Source: Patescibacteria group bacterium
GTDB lineage: Bacteria > Patescibacteriota > Patescibacteriia > 2-01-FULL-39-33
Assembly: GCA_041649575.1 (NCBI GenBank)
Contig: JBAZMW010000002.1
Coordinates: 180,001 to 212,000, forward strand
DNA: 32,000 bases
Direction: 5' to 3'
Each line of letters starts with the position of its first letter. Position 1 is the first letter of the stretch. The notes beneath the pieces were generated by a model. The model did not search any database. It was given only the letters and a program-made list of their open reading frames with translations, and was not told where the DNA came from. The position numbers and the translations under genes were made by a program. Positions 1 to 11,143 of the stretch are shown here, piece by piece.

Positions 1-1
1 A

Positions 2-865
2 CCCAAAGATCATTACGATTTAGCTGTAGCTTTAGATATTATTGATTATGAACGCGCCGTCAAAATGTCTGGTTCCGGTTTTTGGATTTACAAAGGTGCC
101 GGCGCCATTTTGGAATGGGCCATTTTATCGTATTTTATAAAATTCCATCAGGCTAATGGCTATATTTTCATGATCCCGCCCTTTTTGCTCACCGAGCAGT
201 CAGCTTATACTTCCGGCCACCTGCCTAAATTCAGAGACGATTTATTTTGGACTCAAGACAAGCAGTGTCTCAATGCCACCAGCGAAATGATGTTGGGCAA
301 TTACCATCGTGACGAAATTATTCCCGAGCAGTCGTTGCCTCTTAAATATTGCGCTTACTCGGCTTGTTTCCGGCGTGAAGCCGGCAGTTACCGCAAAGAA
401 GAAAGGGGAATGATCCGCGGCCATCAATTTAATAAAATAGAAATGTTCCATTATACTCGGCCAGAGCAATCCTGGGATAGTTTTGCCGAGCTGGTGGCCA
501 GTGCCGAGAAATTAGTTGAGGGTCTAGGTCTGCATTATCAATCAGTACAATTAGCAGCCGAAGACGCCAGCGCCGCCATGGCCAAAACCATTGATGTAGA
601 GGCCTGGATTCCTAGTATGGCTAGTTATAAAGAGGTAAGCAGTGTTTCCAATGCGCTTGATTACCAGGCCAGGCGAGGCAATGTGCGTTACAAAAATAAG
701 GAAACAGGCAAAAATGAATTTGTTCATACTCTAAATGCCTCTGGTTTGGCCACTAGCCGTTTGATTCCGGCAATTTTGGAACAACTCCAGAACGCGGACG
801 GCTCGGTGGACGTGCCAGAAGTTTTGCAGCCATTCTGCGGTTTTGATAAAATTTTCAAGTGCTAA
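2..865 (+). CDS. serS: Seryl-tRNA synthetase, C-terminal catalytic part (5' end lies upstream of the window)
   Basis: Frame is open from the window edge (PKDHYDLAVALDIIDYERAVKMSGSGFW...). Class II aaRS core motifs FRREAGSYRKEERGMIRGHQFNKIEMF and TLNASGLATSRLIPAILE. Confidence 0.93.
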   Translation, partial: PKDHYDLAVALDIIDYERAVKMSGSGFWIYKGAGAILEWAILSYFIKFHQANGYIFMIPPFLLTEQSAYTSGHLPKFRDDLFWTQDKQCLNATSEMMLGNYHRDEIIPEQSLPLKYCAYSACFRREAGSYRKEERGMIRGHQFNKIEMFHYTRPEQSWDSFAELVASAEKLVEGLGLHYQSVQLAAEDASAAMAKTIDVEAWIPSMASYKEVSSVSNALDYQARRGNVRYKNKETGKNEFVHTLNASGLATSRLIPAILEQLQNADGSVDVPEVLQPFCGFDKIFKC

Positions 866-875
866 GTTTTAAATG

Positions 876-919
876 AAAATAAAACGAGCTGGCCGAATCG
901 TGTTGATTCAGCCAGCTCG
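876..919 (-). terminator. Intrinsic terminator oriented for the minus-strand 165-aa gene
   Basis: Perfect 9-bp stem CGAGCTGGC (885-893) / GCCAGCTCG (911-919) with a 17-nt loop. On the minus strand the stem is followed by TTTTATTTT (884-876); on the plus strand no T-run follows. Confidence 0.75.
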
Positions 920-938
920 GTTGTAGCGTGGTGGCTTA

Positions 939-1436
939 CTATCTGAGGTGTAGAGCTTTCACCTCCGGTCCCTCACCGAAACACTTGCGTCCCGCCGGTG
1001 ACCCCGCAAGAAGCCGCAGACTGCAGGTTCGCTTGGCTTTCTCGACTTCCTCCATCAGGATTTGCAGTACGTAGAGGAGTCGGTCGACCGAGATCAACCT
1101 GGTCTTCAACTGCACACTTTCGGTCTCCACGTCGATACTGCCGACATGTTGCATCCGCCGCGTGACTTGCAGTTTGGGTCTGCGGCCCTCGACGGCTTTG
1201 ACCGCCTCCCGTGTCAAGACGATGACGTCAGAGCAGTTGAACTCCGATTCCCTCAGTCGTCGGCCGAATTCCCGGATGTGTTTTCCGTCCGTGCCGGATT
1301 CGCCATCCGGGTCAGGCATTTCGAACAGGAACATACGCTCCAAGGCTCTCCGCAGGTCATCTCGTGGGTCGATCCCGACGCTCCTCTCTTCTTCCGACAA
1401 CTCTTGTTCTCCCATTTCTGGCTTACCTTTCAGCAT
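939..1436 (-). CDS. Hypothetical 165-aa charged/acidic protein encoded by a GC-rich cassette; no family recognised
   Basis: ATG at 1436 is preceded by GAGGAgcGAGGAaacat (SD 5 nt upstream). It has its own consensus promoter and terminator in the matching orientation. Caveat: three frames are open across this block, so ORF length alone is weak evidence. Confidence 0.55.
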   Translation of the reverse strand: MLKGKPEMGEQELSEEERSVGIDPRDDLRRALERMFLFEMPDPDGESGTDGKHIREFGRRLRESEFNCSDVIVLTREAVKAVEGRRPKLQVTRRMQHVGSIDVETESVQLKTRLISVDRLLYVLQILMEEVEKAKRTCSLRLLAGSPAGRKCFGEGPEVKALHLR

Positions 1437-1505
1437 ATGTTTCCTCGCTCCTCAATGTTTTCCACCATAGTCCTAGCAAGCCACCGTTGCTAAGGTACTA
1501 ATTAT

Positions 1506-1535
1506 ATTATACCCCATAAACCCAAAACTTGTCAA
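1506..1535 (-). promoter_or_regulatory. Sigma70-type promoter TTGACA-N18-TATAAT for the 939-1436 gene
   Basis: The minus strand reads TTGACA (1535-1530), an 18-nt spacer, then TATAAT (1511-1506). The -35 lies 6 nt from the ATG (1541) of the divergent ftsQ-like gene. Confidence 0.7.
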
Positions 1536-1540
1536 GAGAA

Positions 1541-2386
1541 ATGATAGAAGACAAAAACCAATTTAATTACCGGCCGAAAATTCAGGTCAAAAAGGATTAT
1601 TACCGCCAGCGCTTTATCAATCCTTATTTTAATAAGGATAAAAAAAATAAATACCAGGGTTTCAACACCAGATTTTATCTAAAAATTTTAGTGGCGGTTT
1701 TTTTGTTGTACCTGATAGTTTACAGTGATTTATTCAAGATAGGGGAGATAAGCATTTCCGGCACCGATATGATCAGCCAAACCGAATTTCGGCAAATGGT
1801 GGAAAAGGAAATAAATACCTGGCGTTGGCATTTTTGGCCGCAGAGGAACCAGCTTTTGCTTAGTAAAAAACGATTGGCGCAAAAGATCACCAGCCAATAC
1901 AGTCTTAGTAAGCTGGAAATAAAAAAGGGTTGGCGCCGGCTGCAAATCAATCTGGAAGAAAAAATTTCTTACCTGATGGTTTTTAATCGCGGCAAGTTTT
2001 ACTTTACCGACGCCTGGGGCAATGTCACCCGGGAAATTTCTCCGGAGGAAGCCCAAAAATACTGGACCAGATTTCCCATTTTAAACACCGACCAAGAACG
2101 GGTCGATATCGGCAGCCAGATAACTTCCGAAAAAATGGTTAATTTCATTTTGGCTCTCAGTGGAAAGATAAAAGAAATGAAGCTGGCCATCTCTGGCTAC
2201 GAGAGTCGGGGACAGGAGGAAGTGTCTCTGGTGGCCAAAGCCGGCTGGCGGGCTTATTTTGATATTGACTCCGATGTTGCCAAGTCCGTGGAAAACTTGG
2301 AATTGGTACTGAAAGAAAAAATCAAAGACCAGAAAAATTTGCAATATATTGATTTACGTTTCGGCGATAAGATTTATTACAAATAG
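1541..2386 (+). CDS. ftsQ: Cell division protein FtsQ/DivIB-like (single N-terminal TM plus POTRA-like segment)
   Basis: Basic N-terminal tail, TM helix FYLKILVAVFLLYLIVY, then FKIGEISISGTDMISQTEFRQMV, typical of the POTRA start. ATG 1541 is preferred over the TTG at 1529 used by the ORF track. Confidence 0.55.
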   Translation: MIEDKNQFNYRPKIQVKKDYYRQRFINPYFNKDKKNKYQGFNTRFYLKILVAVFLLYLIVYSDLFKIGEISISGTDMISQTEFRQMVEKEINTWRWHFWPQRNQLLLSKKRLAQKITSQYSLSKLEIKKGWRRLQINLEEKISYLMVFNRGKFYFTDAWGNVTREISPEEAQKYWTRFPILNTDQERVDIGSQITSEKMVNFILALSGKIKEMKLAISGYESRGQEEVSLVAKAGWRAYFDIDSDVAKSVENLELVLKEKIKDQKNLQYIDLRFGDKIYYK

Positions 2387-2394
2387 AGGAGTGG

Positions 2395-2430
2395 GGATAA
2401 CTGTAATTGTTTGTTTATCCTTTTTATTTT
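2395..2430 (+). terminator. Probable intrinsic terminator after the ftsQ-like gene
   Basis: GGATAA (2395-2400) pairs with TTATCC (2415-2420) and is followed by TTTTTATTTT (2421-2430). Confidence 0.5.
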
Positions 2431-2488
2431 ATAATACCTTTAATGTCGCATAATATAGCTTAAGCGATAATAAAGCAAGTAATTAATC

Positions 2489-3454
2489 ATGAAGAAATCA
2501 AATCTGCCTATTCTCAGTCAGTTTTCGGACTTTCTGGCCTATTGCGAGGTAGAAAAAGGTCTTAGCCCCATTTCTACCAGAAATTACCACAATTTTTTGA
2601 GAATGTTCGAAGGTTGGCTAAAAATCAAACATTTAACGCAGCTCAAGCCGCATGAGCTCACTCCAGAGCATGTCTGGGACTACCGGCTTTATCTTTCCCG
2701 TCGGCAAGACCGCTCTGGTCGCTATATCAAAAAAACCACTCAAAATTATTATTTAATCGCCCTTAGGAACCTTTTGAACTACTTCGCCGATAAAGATATT
2801 ATCTCTTTGCCTTCAGAAAAAGTTAAATTACCAAAATTAACCGAAAAAGACAAAGCGATAAAGTTTCTAAAGTTTGATCAGATAGAAAAGTTATTACAGG
2901 TGCCGGATGTCACCACTCTTGAAGGCCTAAGGGACAGAACGATTCTCGAAATTCTCTTCTCTACTGGTATGCGGGTTTCGGAGTTAACGTCGCTTAATAT
3001 CAAACAGTTTGATCGCCTAGCTTTACTAAAAAATAATTTTTCTGATCAAGAGTTAAGCATCGCTGGTAAAGGTGGTAGAACAAGAACGGTTTATTTTTCT
3101 CATCGAGCTTTGGGTTGGCTGGCTAGATACTTAAAAAACAGAAACGACCTCTATCCCCCGCTTTTTATTAACTATCGTCCCCATAATGACAGAGATGACG
3201 AGCACCGTTTAACGCCTCGTTCGGTTGAAAGATTGGTAAAAAGACACACCGTGATGGCCGGGTTGCCTGTTGATGCCACGCCGCACACCCTGCGTCATAG
3301 CTATGCCACGGATTTATTGGATCAGGGAGCAGATTTGCGCAGTGTCCAGGAGCTTTTGGGGCATAAAAATATTGTTACCACTCAAATTTATACTCACGTC
3401 ACCAATCAAAAGCTTCGCTCCATTCATAAAAAATTTCATAGTGGCAATCATTGA
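2489..3454 (+). CDS. Tyrosine recombinase, XerC/XerD family
   Basis: N-terminal SAM-like core-binding region (FLAYCEVEKGLSPISTRNY). C-terminal catalytic signature HTLRHSYATDLLDQGADLRSVQELLGHKNIVTTQIYTHV. Confidence 0.9.
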   Translation: MKKSNLPILSQFSDFLAYCEVEKGLSPISTRNYHNFLRMFEGWLKIKHLTQLKPHELTPEHVWDYRLYLSRRQDRSGRYIKKTTQNYYLIALRNLLNYFADKDIISLPSEKVKLPKLTEKDKAIKFLKFDQIEKLLQVPDVTTLEGLRDRTILEILFSTGMRVSELTSLNIKQFDRLALLKNNFSDQELSIAGKGGRTRTVYFSHRALGWLARYLKNRNDLYPPLFINYRPHNDRDDEHRLTPRSVERLVKRHTVMAGLPVDATPHTLRHSYATDLLDQGADLRSVQELLGHKNIVTTQIYTHVTNQKLRSIHKKFHSGNH

Positions 3455-3465
3455 AATAAAAACTA

Positions 3466-3492
3466 CGTCCCGATAACCGGGACGGAGTTTTT
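3466..3492. terminator. Bidirectional intrinsic terminator between the recombinase gene and the Cys-rich mini-ORF
   Basis: CGTCCCG (3466-3472) / CGGGACG (3478-3484) with a 5-nt loop. GAGTTTTT follows on the plus strand and TAGTTTTTATTT on the minus strand. Confidence 0.8.
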
Positions 3493-3515
3493 CAGAGAAT
3501 AAAATCGTCTTTTGT

Positions 3516-3644
3516 TTATTCTTTCTCTTTGCAACCGCAGCCGCAACCGGCCCCGCAGGAACAGCAATGAAAACAAACCTCCGGCTCGCAGGAACAGCGG
3601 GTTTCTTCGTCTATGGGCATCTCGCATTTAGCGCATTTATCCAT
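3516..3644 (-). CDS. Unannotated 42-aa cysteine-rich mini-protein (12 Cys): MDKCAKCEMPIDEETRCSCEPEVCFHCCSCGAGCGCGCKEKE
   Basis: Hand translation of the minus strand from ATG at 3644 to TAA at 3518-3516. It is below the ORF-track length cutoff and lies 40 nt downstream of, and co-directional with, the M23 gene. A possible TTGCCT-N16-TATTAT promoter overlaps the M23 stop. No SD is present. Confidence 0.5.
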   Translation of the reverse strand: MDKCAKCEMPIDEETRCSCEPEVCFHCCSCGAGCGCGCKEKE

Positions 3645-3683
3645 AAAATTTGGTTAATTATTTAATAATATCTAATTTCTAGT

Positions 3684-4937
3684 TTAAGGCAAGTAGGTCG
3701 AGGGGCTGACTGGGATGCCATTAGAGCGCACCTCGAAATGTAAATGGGGACCGGTAGAAAATCCCGTGTTGCCGCTGTAACCGATAATTTGTCCTTTGGT
3801 GACATATTGATCACCTTTAACATTAATACTGCTTAAATGGCCATATAGAGTCGAGAGATTGTTGTTATGAATGATCATGACGTAGGTGCCATACCAGCGG
3901 GTGTTGGCGGCTACTTTGGCCACATAGCCGGATTCGGCCGCTTTTACTGGTGTGCCGATTTTGGCCGCTAGGTCGATTCCCGAATGTTCAAAGAGATTAC
4001 GAAACGGGTAATCGGGATCATGAAAATAACAAGTAATCCGGGGATTGTTAATGGGCCAGATCAAAGCGGCTTCTCCCAGAGAATTAAATTTTTCCTGACT
4101 CCCCTTTTTTTCCAGCTCTTGTCGAATTTTTCTTTCCAAGGCGGCGATTTGATTATTGGCCGCCGTTTGTTCTTTTTTGAGATCGGTAATCAGGTTTTGA
4201 AATTTGACCTCCGATTTTTTGGTCTCGACAATCAGATACTGTTTGGCGCCCTTTTGTTCGCCCAGCGCCGTCTTTTCCTGTTCCAGCTTGTTTAGCAAGT
4301 CTGAAAGTTGATCGCGTTCGCCGTTTAATTTTTCTTTTTGCTTGTTCAAAGTTTCTACCAGTTCTTGCACGCGGTTCAGGGTTTTTTGTAAATCACCTTC
4401 TATATTTTCCAAAGCTTTTACCTGATCGAAAAATTCCGAAAAAGAATTGTTGCTTAGTAAAACAAAAAGATAATTTTTGTCGTCATAATGATCGAGAGCG
4501 CGGATAAAAGCGGCCAGCCGTTCCTTGTCTTTATTGATCATCAGCTCATTTTCTTTGATTTTCAGGCCGATTTTTTCTATTTCCAGTTCGGTTGATTTAA
4601 TCTCCTCTTCTTTGGCGGTGATGTCTAGTCCCATTTTGGCGATCTGATTATCCAAAATATAAACTTGATTTTTAAAGTTGGCCGCTTGGCCCTGGGCTTT
4701 TTTGATGCTGTCTTTGTGCTTGTTTATCTCCTCGGCTAATTTGTCTATTTTTTCCTGTTGGGCTTCAATTTGCTTGTTTAAATTGGCTATCAAAGCTTCA
4801 TTAGAGCCGGAGTCGCCAGCTGTCTCTTGCGCTCGCCCTATTTCTCTGGACATCAAAAAAACACCGCCAAAAATAATTAACGGCATCAAAATTGACGCTA
4901 AAATATGATATTTTAGCTTTTTCAGTTCGGCAAGCAT
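3684..4937 (-). CDS. M23 family metallopeptidase with long N-terminal coiled coil (EnvC-like peptidoglycan hydrolase/activator)
   Basis: N-terminal TM, about 250 aa of heptad-like E/K/Q-rich sequence, then a C-terminal M23 domain with HSGIDLAA, YGHL and GPHLHFEV motifs. Confidence 0.9.
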   Translation of the reverse strand: MLAELKKLKYHILASILMPLIIFGGVFLMSREIGRAQETAGDSGSNEALIANLNKQIEAQQEKIDKLAEEINKHKDSIKKAQGQAANFKNQVYILDNQIAKMGLDITAKEEEIKSTELEIEKIGLKIKENELMINKDKERLAAFIRALDHYDDKNYLFVLLSNNSFSEFFDQVKALENIEGDLQKTLNRVQELVETLNKQKEKLNGERDQLSDLLNKLEQEKTALGEQKGAKQYLIVETKKSEVKFQNLITDLKKEQTAANNQIAALERKIRQELEKKGSQEKFNSLGEAALIWPINNPRITCYFHDPDYPFRNLFEHSGIDLAAKIGTPVKAAESGYVAKVAANTRWYGTYVMIIHNNNLSTLYGHLSSINVKGDQYVTKGQIIGYSGNTGFSTGPHLHFEVRSNGIPVSPSTYLP

Positions 4938-4986
4938 GGAAAGAAGATTATTTTAATCTTATTCTACAAGAATTATATAACAATTC

Positions 4987-5015
4987 TTGACAAAAATCAA
5001 TCTCAAAGCTATTAT
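4987..5015 (+). promoter_or_regulatory. Sigma70-type promoter TTGACA-N17-TATTAT for the 87-aa zinc-ribbon gene
   Basis: TTGACA at 4987-4992, a 17-nt spacer, TATTAT at 5010-5015, located in the AT-rich spacer. Confidence 0.65.
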
Positions 5016-5070
5016 TTTTATTAAGTTGTCCTTTGGCTTTTGGTGAAGTTTCAACAACGGAGGGAGAAAC

Positions 5071-5334
5071 ATGGGACTCGTCGCTCCTGACACTCGCGGC
5101 AACGCGTGCTGGCTGATTAAATGCAACAACTGCGGCCATCAGGCGGCTTGGGATGGCTCCAATGCCGAGCAAACCCTTAGCCTGGCCGAGAATGATGGTT
5201 GGACGGTAACTCGAGGCAAGGGCCCAGGTGAGGTGGTCGCTCTGTGCCCCGAATGCAGGAAGAAACAACAGAAAGTCACTCCAGCCGCCATTGTCAGCCT
5301 GATGGATTTCCGCCAAGCATTGCCCAGGCGGTGA
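5071..5334 (+). CDS. Hypothetical 87-aa protein with a four-cysteine zinc-ribbon-like arrangement (CNNC...CPEC); GC-rich cassette gene
   Basis: ATG 5071 is preceded by GGAGGGAG (5059-5066). Cys pairs C18-x2-C21 and C59-x2-C62. It has its own promoter and downstream hairpin. Confidence 0.6.
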   Translation: MGLVAPDTRGNACWLIKCNNCGHQAAWDGSNAEQTLSLAENDGWTVTRGKGPGEVVALCPECRKKQQKVTPAAIVSLMDFRQALPRR

Positions 5335-5374
5335 GCCGCGGGAGGTTTCCGAGATTCCCAACGTCAAAGGTTTC

Positions 5375-5413
5375 AAGGCTTGGACCGAGCGCGGTTCAAG
5401 CCTTTTCTGTCTT
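5375..5413 (+). terminator. Stem-loop plus T-rich tail after the zinc-ribbon gene; overlaps the gltX stop codon
   Basis: AAGGCTTG (5375-5382) / CAAGCCTT (5397-5404) followed by TTCTGTCTTT. The right arm contains the last codons and stop of convergent gltX. Confidence 0.55.
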
Positions 5414-6904
5414 TAAGCGCTCCAGCGCTTGCCTGATTCTTAGTAAACTTTTTTCTGGTCCCAAAATTTCCGCCACCTCAAACGGCGTTGGCGATTTTTC
5501 CATTCCCGTCAGCGCCACTCTCATCGGCCACAGCACTTCGCCGTTGGTCAGATTGTTTTTAGTGATAAAAGTTTTTAATTTATTTTCCAATACTCCCCTT
5601 TCCCAGTCGCTGGCAGAATATTTTTCCAACTCCTGCAAAGTTAATTGCAAATTTTTTTTAGCCGCTTCCGCGCTAGATTTTTTCCAGACCAGCAAGCTCG
5701 GGTTATAACTTAGCTCAGCGGTAAAGAAAAAATTTATCCTCCCCCCTACTTCGTTCAAGCGGCTAACCCTTTCTTGTTCTAGTTTTAGTATTTTTTCCAA
5801 ATCCAAATCAGTTGGCATTTGACCGACATTCTTTTCCAAATACGGCTTGGCTAGTTGGGCAAATTTAGTATTGGTCAGTTTCTTAAGGTATTCGCCATTG
5901 AGCCAGTCTAGTTTGGCTAGATCAAAAATGGCTCCGGCCTTGTGCACCTTGGCCAGAGAAAAAGCCTGAATAAGTTCTGGCAGGAGAAAAATTTCTTGTT
6001 CAGTGCCCGGATTCCAACCCAAAAGCGCCACAAAATTTAGGAGCGCTTCCGGCAAATAGCCTTTGTCGCGGTAATCCTCCACCGCCACGTCGCCTTGTCG
6101 TTTGGACAGTTTGCTGCGGTCGGCGTTTAAGATCAGAGGCAAATGGGCAAACAGCGGCGGCGTCCAGCCCAAAAATTTGTACAACAATAAATGCTTTGGC
6201 GTCGAAGACAGCCACTCTTCGCCGCGAATGACATGGGAGATTTTCATCAGATGGTCGTCAACCACCGAAGCCAAGTGATAAGTCGGAAAGCCATCGGCTT
6301 TCAAGATCACTTGGTCGTCTATTTCCCGGCTACGAAATTTTATTTCGCCGCGAATCAAATCATTAAAAACCACTTCTTGATTTTCCGGCACCTTCATTCT
6401 GATGGTGTATTTTTCGCCGGCCGCCAACTTATTTTGCACTTCATCTGGCAACAGATGGCGGCAATGCCAATCATATCTGGTTGGCTGTTTGGCGGCCTCT
6501 TGCTGTCGGCGTAAATTTTCTAACCTTTCCTCACTGCAGAAGCAATAATAGGCCAAACCCTTATTTACTAGCTCGGAGGCGTATTTCTGATAGATTTCGA
6601 GCCTTTTAGACTGCGTGTAGGGCCCAAAATGGCCTTTTTCAACGGCTTTTCCGGCTTTATCGAGTATTACGCCCTCGTCGGGTTTTAGGCTCGCCCAAGC
6701 CAAATTTTTGAGCAAATTTTCTACCGCCCCCGGCACTTCCCTGGTTTGGTCGGTATCTTCGATTCTCAGCACAAAAGACCCTTTATTTTGTTTGGCAAAA
6801 ATATAGGCATAGAGCGCGGTGCGTAGTCCCCCGACATGCAAATAGCCAGTCGGACTCGGCGCAAAGCGGGTGCGGACCTTTAATTTGTTTAGAAAAGAAA
6901 ACAT
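5396..6904 (-). CDS. gltX: Glutamyl-tRNA synthetase
   Basis: Class I motifs RFAPSPTGYLHVGGLRTALY (HIGH-type) and KLSKRQG (KMSKS-type); 502 aa. Confidence 0.95.
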   Translation of the reverse strand: MFSFLNKLKVRTRFAPSPTGYLHVGGLRTALYAYIFAKQNKGSFVLRIEDTDQTREVPGAVENLLKNLAWASLKPDEGVILDKAGKAVEKGHFGPYTQSKRLEIYQKYASELVNKGLAYYCFCSEERLENLRRQQEAAKQPTRYDWHCRHLLPDEVQNKLAAGEKYTIRMKVPENQEVVFNDLIRGEIKFRSREIDDQVILKADGFPTYHLASVVDDHLMKISHVIRGEEWLSSTPKHLLLYKFLGWTPPLFAHLPLILNADRSKLSKRQGDVAVEDYRDKGYLPEALLNFVALLGWNPGTEQEIFLLPELIQAFSLAKVHKAGAIFDLAKLDWLNGEYLKKLTNTKFAQLAKPYLEKNVGQMPTDLDLEKILKLEQERVSRLNEVGGRINFFFTAELSYNPSLLVWKKSSAEAAKKNLQLTLQELEKYSASDWERGVLENKLKTFITKNNLTNGEVLWPMRVALTGMEKSPTPFEVAEILGPEKSLLRIRQALERLKTEKA

Positions 6905-6907
6905 AAA

Positions 6908-7777
6908 TTATTTTTTCTTTACCACCAGCCACCCAAATTTAATGGTGGCATTATAAATCCTACTTAACCGGCGCGGTTCTTGGATTAGCCGATATAGCCA
7001 TTCTAACCCCAATCGCCTCAAAAATAAAGGCGCGCGTCTCACCTGTCCCGACAAAAAATCAAAAGTCCCGCCGACGCCAATCGCCACTTTAATTTTTGGC
7101 ACTTTGGCTAAGTTGTCTCTGATCCACTTCTCCTGCCTCACTTGCGGCAAGGCCACCAACAGAATATTGGCTTCGCTGGCATTAATTTTTTCCAGCACCT
7201 GATTGTTGTTTTCAAATTGCCAACATTTGTTTTCTATGGGATCCCCACGGCCGGCTTCGCCGGCCTCGGGATGACATTGTAGAAGCGGCCCGCCTTGGTC
7301 AAAGCCAGCCACTTTGCCAATATATTTTTCTGCCACTTGTTTTGCCGCTCCTTCTTTTCCGCCCAGTAAATAAATTTTATAAATGTCATTGCGAGGGAGC
7401 GCGAGCGACCGTCCGCCTAGGCTCGGCGAGACTGGTGGCAATCCCGTGGGATCACCGCGTTGCCCGGTCATTTGACCGGGCTCCTCGGGATGACAACTTA
7501 GAAGTGCCTCTATTAGATCCACGCCCGTCACTCTCTCTAATTTTTCTTGTTTTAAAAATTTAGCCGCCCAAACCAGCCCAGCGCCATCGCAGGTGGCCAA
7601 ATCAGCATTATTTAAAATATTTCTGAAAACTTCGTCTTTTTGCGCCGCCACCACAAATTCCGGATTAATCGTCACCACCTGCCTTTGGCCTTCCGCTGTC
7701 AGCCATTTTTTAATTAACTTCAAGGCTTCTGGCAAATTGACCTGATCGATTTTTATTCCCAGTATTTCTATTTTCAT
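6908..7777 (-). CDS. WecG/TagA/CpsF-family glycosyltransferase (GT26) carrying two in-frame GC-rich insertions
   Basis: Family-typical segments VVTINPEFVV, DLATCDGAGLVWA, IYLLGGKEG, ILLVALPQVRQEKW, AIGVGGTFDF and LEWLYRL. About 45-50 extra residues come from the repeats at 7238-7288 and 7384-7507. Confidence 0.8.
   Translation of the reverse strand: MKIEILGIKIDQVNLPEALKLIKKWLTAEGQRQVVTINPEFVVAAQKDEVFRNILNNADLATCDGAGLVWAAKFLKQEKLERVTGVDLIEALLSCHPEEPGQMTGQRGDPTGLPPVSPSLGGRSLALPRNDIYKIYLLGGKEGAAKQVAEKYIGKVAGFDQGGPLLQCHPEAGEAGRGDPIENKCWQFENNNQVLEKINASEANILLVALPQVRQEKWIRDNLAKVPKIKVAIGVGGTFDFLSGQVRRAPLFLRRLGLEWLYRLIQEPRRLSRIYNATIKFGWLVVKKK
7238..7288. repeat. GC-rich palindromic element, short copy, in frame inside the GT26 gene
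   Basis: GGGATCCCCACG + hairpin GGCCGGC-ttc-GCCGGCC + CTCGGGATGACAttgTAGAAG. It shares its ends with 7448-7507 and translates (minus strand) as LLQCHPEAGEAGRGDP. Confidence 0.7.
7384..7507. mobile_element. MITE-like GC-rich palindromic element, in frame inside the GT26 gene
   Basis: Imperfect terminal inverted repeats TGTCATTGCGAGG (7384-7396) and CCTCGGGATGACA (7483-7495). Internal hairpin CCCGGTCAtttGACCGGG. Translates (minus strand) as LLSCHPEEPGQMTGQRGDPTGLPPVSPSLGGRSLALPRNDI. Confidence 0.65.
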
Positions 7778-7780
7778 AAG

Positions 7781-8437
7781 CTACTTTTTTAGATAATTCA
7801 CGATGATTTTGGCCTGGCTCTGGTTTTCTTTGTCGTCCTTAAAAGACATCAGGCCAAAAATGTCGCCTTTCCAAAAGCCCAAATTAATTTCATAATCTGC
7901 CAGATTTTCCTTAAACTCAAAGCCGCTTTCCTTCAGCTTGTTTTTGTAGTAGCCGGCCACCTCTTCTTTCGGCTGGCTTATCTGTTTCCAGGACAAAGAG
8001 GTTGTTTCCATTTTTTTCAGTTCCGGCGAGCTTAGGGCTTTTTTTAATTCCTCCGGCGTAAAACCGCGCGACAAGTCTATTTTATCGGCAAAACTTTGGC
8101 TTAATTTAGCTTTCAAATCATTGGATAAATAAGCCAAAGTCGGCTTAAGCAGCCAGTTTGGTAAAAGGCCCATGATTTTCAAAAGTTTTTCCTTGCCTTC
8201 TGGCGTCTGCAGTTCAATCTCGGCTTTTTCCGGCAGATAAATGGCCAGTTCTTCCGGGAAATCACCCGGCAACTGGTTGACTTTTTCCACCACCGGAGAG
8301 ACCGCCAATCTGACAGCGGCAAAAAGAGTAATGAAGATAATTACCAACGCCAAAATTAAACAACCGAAAAATTTGATAAATTCTCGGCTTCTATTTTTTT
8401 CCGGATTGTTCAGGTTGAGTTCCTGCCAATTTTTCAT
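7781..8437 (-). CDS. Hypothetical membrane-anchored protein (single N-terminal TM)
   Basis: ATG at 8437 with ccAGGAaata upstream is preferred over the TTG at 8470 used by the track. TM FFGCLILALVIIFITLFAAV. No family recognised. Confidence 0.6.
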   Translation of the reverse strand: MKNWQELNLNNPEKNRSREFIKFFGCLILALVIIFITLFAAVRLAVSPVVEKVNQLPGDFPEELAIYLPEKAEIELQTPEGKEKLLKIMGLLPNWLLKPTLAYLSNDLKAKLSQSFADKIDLSRGFTPEELKKALSSPELKKMETTSLSWKQISQPKEEVAGYYKNKLKESGFEFKENLADYEINLGFWKGDIFGLMSFKDDKENQSQAKIIVNYLKK

Positions 8438-8483
8438 TATTTCCTGGCTAATTTTATTATATTCTAGCAAATACCAGCCTTTT

Positions 8484-8512
8484 TTGCAAAAGTAAATCAG
8501 TCTTGTTATAAT
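8484..8512 (+). promoter_or_regulatory. Sigma70-type promoter TTGCAA-N17-TATAAT (unit 1 of the island)
   Basis: TTGCAA at 8484-8489, a 17-nt spacer ending in TGT (extended -10), TATAAT at 8507-8512. Confidence 0.65.
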
Positions 8513-8518
8513 AAAAGT

Positions 8519-8725
8519 GGTTCATTTCCTCGAGACCCGAACTGGTCATTTGGGTCTCACCGCTCCGGTGGGGAAGCGAAACCAGCGCCTTCGCTTCCCC
8601 TCTGGCTTAACCAAAGCACCTTGGTAGCACTTCCCGGGTCTACTGAAAGCCGCATCCAGGCAAGCATTAGACCCGTTCCCGCTGTGGCGGCCGATGGCAT
8701 CAGTCATCAGCCGTCCTTTTTGTTT
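8519..8725 (+). ncRNA. Candidate structured ncRNA of about 205 nt, family not recognised
   Basis: Bounded by the promoter above and a hairpin plus T-run (GATGGC 8693-8698 / GCCGTC 8710-8715, then CTTTTTGTTT). Perfect stems: GAGACCC/GGGTCTC (8532-8538/8552-8558), GGGGAAGCGAA/TTCGCTTCCCC (8570-8580/8590-8600) and CGGGTCTA/TAGACCCG (8635-8642/8668-8675). No SD-preceded start codon. Confidence 0.5.
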
Positions 8726-8732
8726 ATCCACA
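8724..8732 (+). promoter_or_regulatory. Perfect TTATCCACA 9-mer (DnaA-box consensus), copy 1; part of a shared promoter-upstream motif
   Basis: Exact TTATCCACA, 31 nt upstream of the -10 hexamer of unit 2. The context TTATCCACAGtTAaaTATTTAT resembles the copy at 9120. Confidence 0.5.
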
Positions 8733-8760
8733 GTTAAATATTTATAACCAAAGAAATCTT

Positions 8761-8769
8761 TGCTATAAT
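8761..8769 (+). promoter_or_regulatory. Extended -10 promoter element TGcTATAAT (unit 2)
   Basis: TGCTATAAT at 8761-8769, with a weak -35-like TTTATA 17 nt upstream. Confidence 0.5.
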
Positions 8770-8775
8770 AAAATC

Positions 8776-9108
8776 ACATTGGACATGGGGCTTGTCAAAT
8801 GGCCCTGCAACCAGTCCGAACGGAGAACGAGCCATGAGAACAAAGACAACGAAGCGAGCAGCAGTGGGCGTGATGGTCGATGGCACCGGCGGAACAGCGT
8901 ACTTGGCGACGTCCTGACCTAACGAGAACGGTCGGACTGGGCGTCAAAGAAGTTCTCCGAGACGCTTGACTCAACCCAAGCGTCTCGCCGCACCTTAACT
9001 CTCCTCGGAGAGTTGTGACTATAGGTTTTCACGCTTTGACAAAGCGTGGACATCCCCCTAAGGTGAGCAGTCGGTTGCTGACAGGTAGCCGACTCTCTTT
9101 TTGTTTTT
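8776..9108 (+). ncRNA. Candidate transcript of about 330 nt: structured RNA and/or mRNA for a 27-aa peptide; family not recognised
   Basis: Strong terminator: 10-bp stem 9069-9078 / 9085-9094 (two G-U pairs), then CTCTTTTTGTTTTT. Long-range stem CCAGTCCGA (8811-8819) / TCGGACTGG (8932-8940). Hairpins GAGACGCTTG/CAAGCGTCTC (8959-8968/8977-8986), AACTCTC-ctcg-GAGAGTT (8997-9014) and CACGCTTT-gac-AAAGCGTG (9030-9048). Confidence 0.5.
8834..8917 (+). CDS. Possible 27-aa small ORF MRTKTTKRAAVGVMVDGTGGTAYLATS inside unit 2
   Basis: ATG 8834 with GGAG (8822-8825) 8 nt upstream; hand translated; enclosed by the 8811/8932 long-range stem. No other support. Confidence 0.3.
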   Translation: MRTKTTKRAAVGVMVDGTGGTAYLATS

Positions 9109-9119
9109 AAAAAATTTAG

Positions 9120-9128
9120 TTATCCACA
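9120..9128 (+). promoter_or_regulatory. Perfect TTATCCACA 9-mer, copy 2
   Basis: Exact TTATCCACA, 30 nt upstream of the -10 hexamer of unit 3, in the same orientation and relative position as copy 1. Confidence 0.5.
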
Positions 9129-9158
9129 GGTACTATTTATTTCTTTAAAAAATAGTTA

Positions 9159-9164
9159 TATAAT
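9159..9164 (+). promoter_or_regulatory. -10 hexamer TATAAT (unit 3, secreted-protein gene)
   Basis: TATAAT at 9159-9164 in an AT-rich stretch directly after the unit 2 terminator. The -35 is weak (TTTATT-like). Confidence 0.45.
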
Positions 9165-9253
9165 GAAAGTGCGGAAGGTATTTACGATAGCGTACAACCG
9201 AAGCAGGCCATCGGCCAAACGATCGGCCAAACGAAAGAAAGGTGGGACGGAAG

Positions 9254-9745
9254 ATGAGAAAGTTCGTGTTTTGTACGGTAGTACTGGCGTTCGCGTTTGT
9301 GATGATTCCGGCGACGAATACTCCGGCATACGCGACGCAACTCGATCAAGGCAAGGCAGTGGCGACGGCTCCGACGACGATGGGGACGACGCAGCAGGAC
9401 GTGCAGACGGCGATGAAGAGCAACCTGGTCCTCGACGGCACCGGGCAGAAAGTCGCTGAAGTGATGAAGGCGCCGACTCTTGACTCCGGACGAGTGATTG
9501 CGCAGACGGCGACGACGAAGACGGCACGCGAAGAGCAGACGAAGATCACGGCGAAGAGTGACACGGTTGTAACGGCGAAGATCGAAGCGCAAGGCATGGG
9601 CGAGCAGATGGCAGCGGCTGGCGAAGATGACGCTGGCACGATCATCGTGGCGACGAAGAGTGACACCTATGCGACGAGAATCGAGGGCCGTATCGCTCAC
9701 GACGCGGACGCGACCTTCAATGCGAACGTTCTGATCATCGGCTAA
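9254..9745 (+). CDS. Hypothetical secreted protein of about 163 aa, Thr/Ala/Lys/Gln-rich with an internal repeat; GC-rich cassette gene
   Basis: Signal peptide MRKFVFCTVVLAFAFVMIPATNTPAYA|TQ (basic n-region, hydrophobic core, AYA site). AGGTGGG lies 10 nt upstream of ATG 9254 (the track starts at GTG 9242). Repeat AKSDTVVTAKIE / TKSDTYATRIE. G/C-ending codons predominate. Confidence 0.7.
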   Translation: MRKFVFCTVVLAFAFVMIPATNTPAYATQLDQGKAVATAPTTMGTTQQDVQTAMKSNLVLDGTGQKVAEVMKAPTLDSGRVIAQTATTKTAREEQTKITAKSDTVVTAKIEAQGMGEQMAAAGEDDAGTIIVATKSDTYATRIEGRIAHDADATFNANVLIIG

Positions 9746-9830
9746 CCACGCGGGCAGCGCCGAAAGTCAGAACGAGTAGTACCTTGGATACACAACCGAT
9801 ACCGGCCAACAGTCGGATCGGCCACCTCCA

Positions 9831-9874
9831 GAGTTGGGTCAGCTGGCAACGGCGACCCTCTCTTTTTTTGTTTT
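9831..9874 (+). terminator. Intrinsic terminator of unit 3
   Basis: GGGTC (9836-9840) / GACCC (9854-9858), extended by GAG/CTC across a small internal loop, followed by TCTTTTTTTGTTTT. Confidence 0.6.
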
Positions 9875-9882
9875 GAAAAAAT

Positions 9883-9911
9883 TTGCCAAAATTTTATAAA
9901 TTTTTTATACT
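9883..9911 (+). promoter_or_regulatory. Sigma70-type promoter TTGCCA-N17-TATACT (unit 4)
   Basis: TTGCCA at 9883-9888, a 17-nt spacer, TATACT at 9906-9911. Confidence 0.6.
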
Positions 9912-9917
9912 ATAAGC

Positions 9918-10242
9918 AAGCGGTTCCTGCTGTGGGAACCGTGCACATTGGGTCAACGGGTCAACCGGAGGGTACAAGCAATATGAAAAAGGAAATGAGA
10001 GCGCAGGGTTTGGTCGTGGCGAAATGGAAGTAGGCTAGACCGTAGCAAGGCAACTTAGCGTTGTTGGGCGGAGGCCCCAACTAACAGTGGGCCTCCGCTG
10101 AATCTTTCCCTCGCTTGAGCGGGGTGCTGGTATATCCTTCTCTGAAGGGGTTCCCCCGTTGGGAAGTGTTGCCCATTCAACGCCTCCTGACCGCACAGGC
10201 TGCAATTTGTCGCAAGACGAAGGGCAGCCTGAATTATTTTTT
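9918..10242 (+). ncRNA. Structured RNA of about 325 nt directly upstream of amrS: stand-alone ncRNA or cis-regulatory leader ending in a terminator
   Basis: Stems CGGTTCC/GGAACCG (9921-9927/9935-9941) and GCGGAGGCCC/GGGCCTCCGC (10068-10077/10089-10098). Terminator CAGGCTGC/GCAGCCTG (10196-10203/10224-10231), then AATTATTTTTT. It ends 25 nt before the amrS ATG. Confidence 0.5.
9983..10033 (+). CDS. Possible 16-codon upstream ORF MKKEMRAQGLVVAKWK inside unit 4
   Basis: ATG 9983 with GGAGGG (9967-9972) 10 nt upstream; hand translated; no other support. Confidence 0.3.
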   Translation: MKKEMRAQGLVVAKWK

Positions 10243-10267
10243 GCTATACTTAATTTATACTGAATTT

Positions 10268-11143
10268 ATGAGAGCAGCCAAATTTTACAAAAAATCAGGG
10301 GCTAATGTTAAATGTCAGCTTTGTCGGCATTTTTGTCTGATTGCCCCAGCCAAGTTCGGCCTCTGCGGCATGAGGAAGAATATCGACGGCCGGCTTTATT
10401 CTCTTAATTACGGTAAAATCATTGCCAGCCAGATTGACCCGATCGAAAAAAAACCGCTCTATCATTTTTTGCCAGGCAGTTTTGCTTATTCTTTGGCTTG
10501 CCCCGGCTGTAATTTTAAATGCCTTAATTGCCAAAATTCCGATCTTTCCCAAATCACCCCGGCTTTACAAAAGGCCGTTGATTCTTTGCCGGAAACCAGG
10601 CCGGAAGAGATTGTCGAGGCGGCCTGGGAAAACAATTGCCCGTCAATCGCTTATACCTATACCGAGCCCACCATTTTTGCCGAGTTTGCTCTCGACTGCA
10701 TGGAGCTGGCCAGAGACAGTAATCTAAAAAATATCTGGGTTTCCAATGGCTATCTGTCGCCCGGTTGTCTGGAGGCCATCAGCCCCTATCTTGACGCCAT
10801 TAATATTGATTTGAAATTTTTTAGCGATAAAAATTATCAAAAAATTTGCGGCGCTCGCCTAAAACCAGTCTTGGATAATCTGGTTGCTTTTAAAACAGCC
10901 AAAATTCATTTGGAAATCACCACTTTAATCATTCCCTCACTTAATGATAGCGATGAAGAGTTAACCGCTCTGGCAGAGTTTATTTATCAAAAATTGGGCG
11001 ACGACACGCCCTGGCATCTGGGCGCCTTTCACCCCGCTTACAAATTAAAAAATTTACCGGCTACGCCGACAGAAACCATCAAGCGGGCCCAGGCAATCGG
11101 GAAAAATATCGGCCTGAAATATGTTTATCCGGGAAATGTTTGA
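10268..11143 (+). CDS. amrS: AmmeMemoRadiSam-system-type radical SAM enzyme (PflA-like activase fold)
   Basis: N-terminal Cys cluster VKCQLCRHFCLI..GLCGMR, DPIEKKPLYHFLPG, and the radical SAM CxxxCxxC motif in CPGCNFKCLNCQN. ATG 10268 is preferred: the track's TTG 10115 extension reads through RNA hairpins and a terminator. Confidence 0.85.
   Translation: MRAAKFYKKSGANVKCQLCRHFCLIAPAKFGLCGMRKNIDGRLYSLNYGKIIASQIDPIEKKPLYHFLPGSFAYSLACPGCNFKCLNCQNSDLSQITPALQKAVDSLPETRPEEIVEAAWENNCPSIAYTYTEPTIFAEFALDCMELARDSNLKNIWVSNGYLSPGCLEAISPYLDAINIDLKFFSDKNYQKICGARLKPVLDNLVAFKTAKIHLEITTLIIPSLNDSDEELTALAEFIYQKLGDDTPWHLGAFHPAYKLKNLPATPTETIKRAQAIGKNIGLKYVYPGNV

Follow-up and report, generated by a model that had tools for sequence, protein, structure and literature searches.

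Unit 1, a candidate stand-alone small RNA gene at a variable gene junction of a Patescibacteria group bacterium

The window analyzed here is a 32,000-nt stretch (positions 180001-212000 of contig C2) of the genome of a Patescibacteria group bacterium. The genome has a size of 0.92 Mb, consists of five contigs, and is 97.9% complete. Between two housekeeping-type genes of the window lies a 1.83-kb gene-free gap (8438-10267). To the left of the gap, gltX, a gene for a WecG-type glycosyltransferase, and a gene for a 218-amino-acid (218-aa) membrane protein are located on the minus strand. To the right, the radical-SAM gene amrS is followed on the plus strand by a Memo/LigB-like gene, def, and fmt. 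The gap contains an island of four GC-rich, self-contained promoter-to-terminator cassettes arranged in tandem. The first of them, unit 1, is the subject of this analysis; the protein genes on its two sides are oriented divergently. A single protein is encoded in the island, a secreted one of 163 aa, and this protein is an orphan, as is the whole island. The GC content of unit 1 is 57%, compared to 44% in the genome and 40% in the intergenic gaps. The features of the locus are listed in Table 1.

Table 1. Features predicted at the unit 1 locus and in the adjoining island, in window coordinates
Feature	Position	Strand	Description
218-aa membrane-protein gene	7781-8437	-	Start codon ATG at 8437
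Divergent promoter of the 218-aa membrane-protein gene	8461-8489	-	TTGCAA-17-TAGAAT with TG
Unit 1 promoter	8484-8512	+	-35 TTGCAA, 17-nt spacer, extended -10 TGtTATAAT; 10/12 matches
Predicted transcript start and unpaired 5' leader	8519-8531	+	Leader with UUUCCUC; from promoter geometry (~7 nt after the -10 element) and folds
Helix H1	8532-8558	+	10 bp including one G-U, 7-nt loop CUGGUCA; pair probabilities 0.79-1.0
Optional closing stem P1	8560-8563/8684-8687 and 8566-8568/8679-8681 (span 8560-8687)	+	RNAalifold structure
Helix H2	8565-8605	+	Perfect 11 bp and 4-bp extension; 9-nt loop ACCAGCGCC
Small hairpin Hm	8610-8625	+	5 bp, z -2.1; absent from the list of the initial annotation
Helix H3	8635-8675	+	Perfect 8 bp CGGGTCTA/TAGACCCG (8635-8642/8668-8675) around 25 nt
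Intrinsic terminator	8686-8724	+	12-bp hairpin 8686-8715, -18.9 kcal/mol, z -4.4; followed by TTTTTGTTT
TTATCCACA (DnaA-box consensus)	8724-8732	+	Flanked by the terminator of unit 1 and the promoter of unit 2
Units 2-4	8741-10267	+	Same 1.83-kb island as unit 1; junctions with common terminator and promoter modules
Unit 2	8776-9100	+	Second cassette of the island
Unit 3	9254-9745	+	Position is that of the orphan secreted-protein ORF held by the unit
Unit 4	9918-10242	+	Last cassette before amrS
amrS start	10268	+	ATG; right boundary of the island

In the region 8300-10400, 10 promoter-like sites were found, compared to 1.9 expected. The consensus-like promoter that the initial annotation had placed upstream of unit 1 at 8484-8512 is present (TTGCAA-17-TATAAT; 10/12), and its -10 element is preceded by TG. 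The palindromic TTGCAA hexamer at 8484-8489 is the -35 element of both the unit 1 promoter and the divergent promoter of the 218-aa protein gene. Since the two promoters have this hexamer in common, they are predicted not to be occupiable simultaneously, and their occupation by RNA polymerase should be mutually exclusive. The shared hexamer may also have a regulatory consequence. At the other end of the unit, the previously noted terminator hairpin was found again. Its description as weaker did not hold, given its 12 pairs, folding energy of -18.9 kcal/mol, and z score of -4.4. The T5GT3 tail is in the style of the T5GT4-type tail of the RNase P RNA gene of this genome. Promoter and terminator bracket a structured, noncoding segment, as in a generic, intrinsically terminated small RNA (sRNA) gene. 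Together, these sequence signals support the prediction of an independent, noncoding transcription unit on the plus strand.

Upstream of the terminator, folding of the predicted RNA revealed the hairpins H1, H2, Hm, and H3, with pair probabilities in the helices of mostly 0.8 to 1.0. H1, H2, and H3 are the three perfect helices that had been reported earlier. They were confirmed at their positions, and two of them, H1 and H2, extend beyond their perfect cores. The 7-bp core of H1 (GAGACCC/GGGTCTC; 8532-8538/8552-8558) is part of an extended helix of -14.9 kcal/mol (z = -3.6). In H2, the perfect 11 bp (8570-8580/8590-8600) are continued by four further pairs past a 1×1 mismatch, resulting in -25.9 kcal/mol (z = -4.1). 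The inner 25 nt of H3 (-20.0 kcal/mol; z = -4.6) form 2+3 pairs with a 3×3 internal loop and a 7-nt apical loop. The MFE structure is an open string of local hairpins. H1 and H3 have a common GGGTCT/AGACCC core in swapped order. A switch based on partner swapping between the two was considered and rejected, because the alternative folds are 14-23 kcal/mol less stable. Furthermore, 5 nt of the H1 loop (CUGGU) are complementary to ACCAG in the H2 loop, suggesting a possible 5-bp kissing contact between H1 and H2. This complementarity was noticed post hoc and has an accidental chance of ~1-2%.

The whole 212-nt unit folds on the plus strand with -87.2 kcal/mol (z = -5.46), and none of 200 dinucleotide-shuffled sequences was as stable. 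For the minus strand, a z score of -3.67 was obtained, and a second comparison gave z scores of -4.5 for the plus and -3.4 for the minus strand. In favor of an RNA on the plus strand, its z score is the more extreme, and the G-U pairs in the extended helices correspond to A-C mismatches on the minus strand. The MFE values of the two strands are nearly equal. Because of the near-equal energies of both strands, the fold alone is no proof of selection on the RNA. As a genomic baseline, we used all 200-nt windows in the ORF-free gaps of the genome, GC-normalized to 1500 random genomic windows. At equal GC, the excess of unit 1 over genomic windows amounts to just -2.3 SD for the plus and -2.5 SD for the minus strand, and ~60-70 intergenic loci of the genome fold as well as unit 1 or better on this scale. 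We conclude that the structure of unit 1 is real and well above shuffle expectation, yet it is no outlier within its own genome. Given the modest excess over genomic windows and the near-equal strand MFE, it is possible that the hairpins originated at the DNA level or neutrally. Folds far stronger than that of unit 1 (-5 to -6.8 SD at equal GC) were detected at C2:160528, C1:229211, C5:41742, and C4:53988, among others.

The view that unit 1 lacks coding potential was borne out on both strands. No ATG or GTG with an SD sequence is present on the plus strand, where the only frames are a 36-codon frame with a GTG start at 8517, which is upstream of the predicted transcription start, and a 38-codon frame with a TTG start. 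Neither of them has an SD sequence. The 3-base GC periodicity seen in the neighboring real ORF (0.57/0.47/0.74) is absent from unit 1 (0.62/0.62/0.55). The 61-aa minus-strand ORF at 8546-8731 does exist, but it is an orphan: among 1.84 billion representative proteins, it matched only itself and two low-complexity sequences.

A comparison with Rfam, as proposed in the initial annotation, revealed no match of unit 1 to a known family, even at E ≤ 10. At gathering score, Rfam 15 yielded one distant tRNA in the whole window and nothing at unit 1. At E ≤ 10, only chance-level matches were obtained in the region 8300-10300 (a P26 match covering the terminator in minus orientation, and matches of snoRNA models to AT-rich DNA). 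ARAGORN detected no tRNA or tmRNA in the region, and RNase P RNA and tmRNA were located elsewhere in the genome.

An ENA assembly and an independently produced Logan assembly both contain the unit 1 region with 100% identity, and therefore it is no assembly artifact; the two copies carry no variation. The closest relative of the flanking 218-aa protein among 5.8 billion proteins shows 48% identity, indicating that no sister species has been sequenced. By blastn, nhmmer, and Smith-Waterman alignment against a shuffle null, no unit 1 homologue was detected at the syntenic loci of 26 family genomes. Apart from unit 1 itself, a covariance model built from the single sequence 8528-8688 retrieved nothing from 34 family genomes or from a sample of 150 genomes of the class. 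When the model was applied to the syntenic loci with filters off, the best match had an E value of 0.11 and was on the wrong strand. Nothing was found in phage and plasmid collections, and a search for related loci with the flanking protein as the query was likewise negative. Exact hairpin patterns retrieved nothing from viral and genome collections and, from the metagenomes, one contig. This contig, which contains the H2 arms, was rejected as a homologue, since it is an unrelated high-GC sequence matching by chance. As no homologue was found, there is no covariation to back the fold. Lack of conserved structure had been named in the initial annotation as an argument against its proposal; with no homologue in any collection searched, conservation is not demonstrable. 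As judged by these searches, the unit 1 cassette is specific to the species or genus.

We then considered the same junction in related genomes. Of 34 family genomes, 29 contain the 218-aa gene, and in eight of these amrS is again its divergent neighbor, with gaps of 188-958 nt. Inspection by eye and a scan showed that several of the relatives' gaps have a consensus promoter and a T-run terminator as well as a series of perfect hairpins joined by C/U-rich linkers. The z scores of these segments range from -4.5 to -10.4. All of these promoter-to-terminator units point towards amrS, as does unit 1. For example, a consensus promoter and a terminator in the orientation of unit 1 were found in L040 (12/12) and L033 (11/12). 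In a uniform survey, an ORF-free segment with a z score of ≤ -3.4 was detected directly upstream of the 218-aa gene in 12 of 26 relatives, and L035 is a 13th such relative if a spurious ORF is disregarded. The ORF-free segments of the survey have z scores of -3.4 to -10, and none of the relatives' segments matched Rfam. They are unalignable between genera and alignable only partly within genera. The only motifs shared among the relatives' units are short C/U-rich k-mers (CCCCTCT, CGCCTCCT), and the units form no alignable family. We conclude that the conserved feature is the site and not the sequence: approximately half of the relatives have unrelated, strongly folding promoter-to-terminator units there.

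Since different, nonhomologous structured cassettes are located at the 218-aa/amrS junction in related genera, this junction is a turnover hot spot. Turnover was also observed between two species of one genus, L027 and L042, which differ at the junction by a ~190-nt insert with 21-bp terminal inverted repeats. In L027, the insert is located ~150-340 nt upstream of the gene for the 218-aa homologue and forms a long foldback (z = -9.5). The insert-free species of the pair has a solo copy of one arm nearby, and the difference looks like a MITE-like gain or loss. Unit 1 itself shows a GC excess, host-type signals, a site between conserved genes, and a content of this site that changes from relative to relative. 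In line with the turnover of the junction, unit 1 is probably a young or fast-evolving, species-specific occupant, namely the one nearest to the 218-aa gene.

Hairpins with an SD-like GGAGG(C) in the 5' arm and CCUCC in the 3' arm are present in unit 4 (10068-10098) and in L028, L033, L035, L024, and L036. Such hairpins recur in units adjoining amrS in several genera.

Within the island, the junctions between the cassettes resemble each other. A 25-nt terminator tail recurs with 92% identity at junctions 2/3 and 3/4; promoters 1 and 2 have a 14-nt -10 module with 93% identity; and junctions 1/2 and 2/3 have a common 18-nt motif around TTATCCACAG (83%). These duplicated modules suggest that the array grew as its regulatory junctions were duplicated or underwent recombination. 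A second copy of the TTATCCACA sequence is located at 9120-9128, in an equivalent relative position. In the genome, this sequence, often followed by G, occurs in 18 copies, which are mostly found in AT-rich intergenic regions, 30-45 nt upstream of promoter-like -10 elements. A reading of the two DnaA boxes as oriC was rejected, because no cluster of relaxed boxes is present anywhere, the skew peak is terminus-like, and the 9-mer recurs upstream of promoters. Thus, TTATCCACA appears to be a motif that recurs at promoters and not a part of oriC. The cumulative GC skew of the 235-kb contig C2 rises steadily, has its maximum at ~178-190 kb (window 1-10000), and then falls. Due to this maximum, the variable island is located at a terminus-like skew switch.

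Based on the signals described above, we suggest that unit 1 is a discrete, independently transcribed noncoding RNA of ~200 nt, and we assign a probability of roughly 0.6 to this reading. The proposal of a stand-alone small RNA made in the initial annotation was upheld with respect to promoter, terminator, fold, noncoding nature, and the lack of an Rfam match; structure conservation based on homologues was not found. Transcription would start near 8519 from an extended -10, sigma-70-type promoter, and the transcript would end at the intrinsic terminator (8686-8724). It is predicted to fold into the 5' hairpin H1 followed by a three-hairpin domain, H2-Hm-H3, which could optionally be closed as a four-way junction. 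We infer that unit 1 would be transcribed as a discrete species and act as an RNA. Our best guess is a stable, trans-acting RNA, which might use its exposed loops and C/U-rich linkers for base pairing or protein binding. As a possible side effect, its transcription could compete with the divergent promoter via the shared -35 hexamer.

Any specific mode of action of the unit 1 RNA is doubtful at present. When 761 translation-start regions were searched for mRNA targets, the best duplex had -46.5 kcal/mol, compared to -45.8 ± 2.2 kcal/mol for shuffled RNA. A 15-nt complementarity to the der/engA coding region was discarded, since it corresponds to a common K-A-L-V codon string (E ~0.15). To our knowledge, almost nothing is known about riboregulation in the CPR/Patescibacteria. 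These bacteria are uncultured, and lineage-specific genes escape RNA discovery by homology. Taken alone, unit 1 is a modest result; the junction, which is occupied recurrently in several genera, offers the better starting point. Provided that they are expressed, unit 1 and its neighbors would add to the picture of GC-rich orphan cassettes as characteristic, fast-turnover components of these minimal genomes.

The main rival to the small RNA reading is a neutral or selfish cassette. According to this explanation, unit 1 would be a recent or decaying GC-rich insert in a hypervariable junction, without a cellular function. It would be transcribed, if at all, only from the host-type signals that it carries, and its hairpins would be the result of local inverted duplication and not of selection acting on an RNA. 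The 6-bp core that H1 and H3 share in swapped order speaks for this explanation, and so does the similar folding of both strands. At the level of the locus, the explanation agrees with the lack of a unit 1 homologue in any collection, the orphan status of the whole island including its sole protein, the duplicated junction modules, and the location at the terminus-like GC-skew switch of the contig. Turnover of the junction even within genera, as exemplified by the ~190-nt insert with 21-bp inverted ends in the L027/L042 pair, points in the same direction. However, unit 1 is single copy and has neither terminal inverted repeats nor target duplications. Moreover, a near-consensus promoter and a good terminator bracket precisely the structured part, and the high GC content is maintained amid an AT-rich intergenic background. 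Considering both sides, we regard a neutral or selfish cassette as a serious although rather unlikely alternative to a functional small RNA.

A more far-reaching reading of the junction is that it represents a dedicated expression slot, which in the whole family is always refilled with fast-evolving, structured, C/U-tract-rich small RNAs, unit 1 among them, having a common role despite their unalignable sequences. Possible roles would then be those of ribosome or SD-mimic decoys, or of RNAs exchanged with the host cell. We consider a dedicated slot improbable. If it were true, it would reveal a positionally conserved, sequence-unconstrained class of RNAs that is invisible to homology-based methods.

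Alternatively, unit 1 could be a cis-acting leader or attenuator. Units 1 and 2 would then form one transcript, in which the domain 8560-8687 acts as a sensor and the terminator at 8686-8724 controls transcription of a 27-codon ORF in unit 2 (8834-8917) and possibly also of the gene for the secreted protein. Indeed, a four-way junction made up of H2, Hm, and H3 and closed by the optional stem P1 has an energy equal to that of the MFE structure (-85.6 and -85.7 kcal/mol, respectively), the 3' strand of P1 abuts the base of the terminator, and the small downstream ORF is preceded by an SD sequence. However, P1 and the terminator can coexist (-85.6 kcal/mol) with a loss of no more than two base pairs from the terminator, and unit 2 is equipped with a promoter of its own (TTTATA-17-TGcTATAAT; 10/12). 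Because of this coexistence and the separate promoter, a riboswitch-type either-or switch is not evident. Furthermore, no riboswitch or leader family matched at E ≤ 10. A leader function of unit 1 is therefore quite improbable.

The GC-rich hairpins could also mark unit 1 as a member of a repeat family of the REP/MITE or NTS/dRS3-like type, and GC-rich hairpins do exist 1 kb away, in frame in the neighboring glycosyltransferase gene (7244-7270 and 7455-7488). These hairpins have 2-3-nt loops, however, and their sequences are unrelated to unit 1. No paralogue of unit 1 was found in its own genome, where none of its arms recurs and only chance 12-15-mers do. Terminal inverted repeats, target duplications, and long-range inverted ends were not detected, and the sole metagenome contig with the H2 arms is the unrelated high-GC sequence mentioned above. 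Because it is single copy, unit 1 is no repeat or MITE; this status largely refutes the repeat explanation, which we consider very improbable.

The last alternative, a divergent universal RNA (6S or SRP RNA) missed by the standard models, could account for the finding that neither RNA is detectable anywhere in the genome, and the length of ~200 nt fits 6S RNA. A 6S-like role had indeed been raised as a possibility in the initial annotation. 6S RNA is a rod with a central bubble, closed by a stem that its 5' and 3' ends form; it associates with the sigma-70 RNA polymerase holoenzyme and serves as a template for pRNA. The 6S model RF00013 had no match in the genome at E ≤ 10. For pairing of nt 1-40 of unit 1 with its last 60 nt, the expected number of pairs is ~0.43, and the end-to-end duplex was no better than in shuffled sequences, 77% of which were at least equal. 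Since its two ends lack rod pairing, unit 1 is not 6S-like, and the possibility raised earlier was not supported. Similarly, the SRP RNA models RF00169 and RF01854 gave no match at E ≤ 10 in the region and none in the genome. PF02978 and PF00448 were also without a match in the genome, and no open frame contains a G1...DTAGR...TKxD signature. In view of the absence of Ffh and FtsY, SRP RNA is not expected in this genome. Finally, conservation within the family would be expected of a universal RNA, but no homologue was retrieved by the covariance model from the 34 family and 150 class genomes. The 6S/SRP explanation is thus largely refuted and extremely improbable.

The SRP pathway is apparently missing beyond this genome. 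RF00169 is absent from 34 family genomes, and the SRP54-type GTPase domain PF00448 (Ffh/FtsY) was detected in 0 of 34 family genomes and as one weak match in 61 genomes sampled across the class. The same searches were positive in 14 of 14 control genomes. If real, this absence would represent a class-wide loss of a near-universal system.

Compared to known systems, unit 1 resembles 6S RNA (RF00013) in its similar length and in being a stand-alone gene with a strong promoter. It differs from 6S RNA by the missing model match, by a multihairpin structure where 6S RNA has a long closing stem and a central bubble, and by its lack of conservation. Domain IV of SRP RNA has a GNRA loop and a symmetric loop; in H3 of unit 1, despite the 3×3 internal loop, the apical loop comprises 7 nt and is not GNRA. 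Like large or ornate orphan RNAs of Rfam such as raiA, ROOL, GOLLD, and OLE, which were discovered as intergenic regions of high GC content within AT-rich genomes, unit 1 combines high GC content and strong structure with an intergenic location in a genome of lower GC content. It is, however, much smaller and had no match to these models at E ≤ 10. Moreover, these classes are defined by covariation over many genomes, and unit 1 is without covariation. The remaining comparison is that with orphan sigma-70 sRNA genes. Although unit 1 differs from them in being a sequence-based candidate that lacks an identifiable seed or target, a known chaperone context, and family conservation, it is like them in having its own promoter, a length of ~200 nt, stable hairpins, a terminator hairpin with a U tract, and no ORF.
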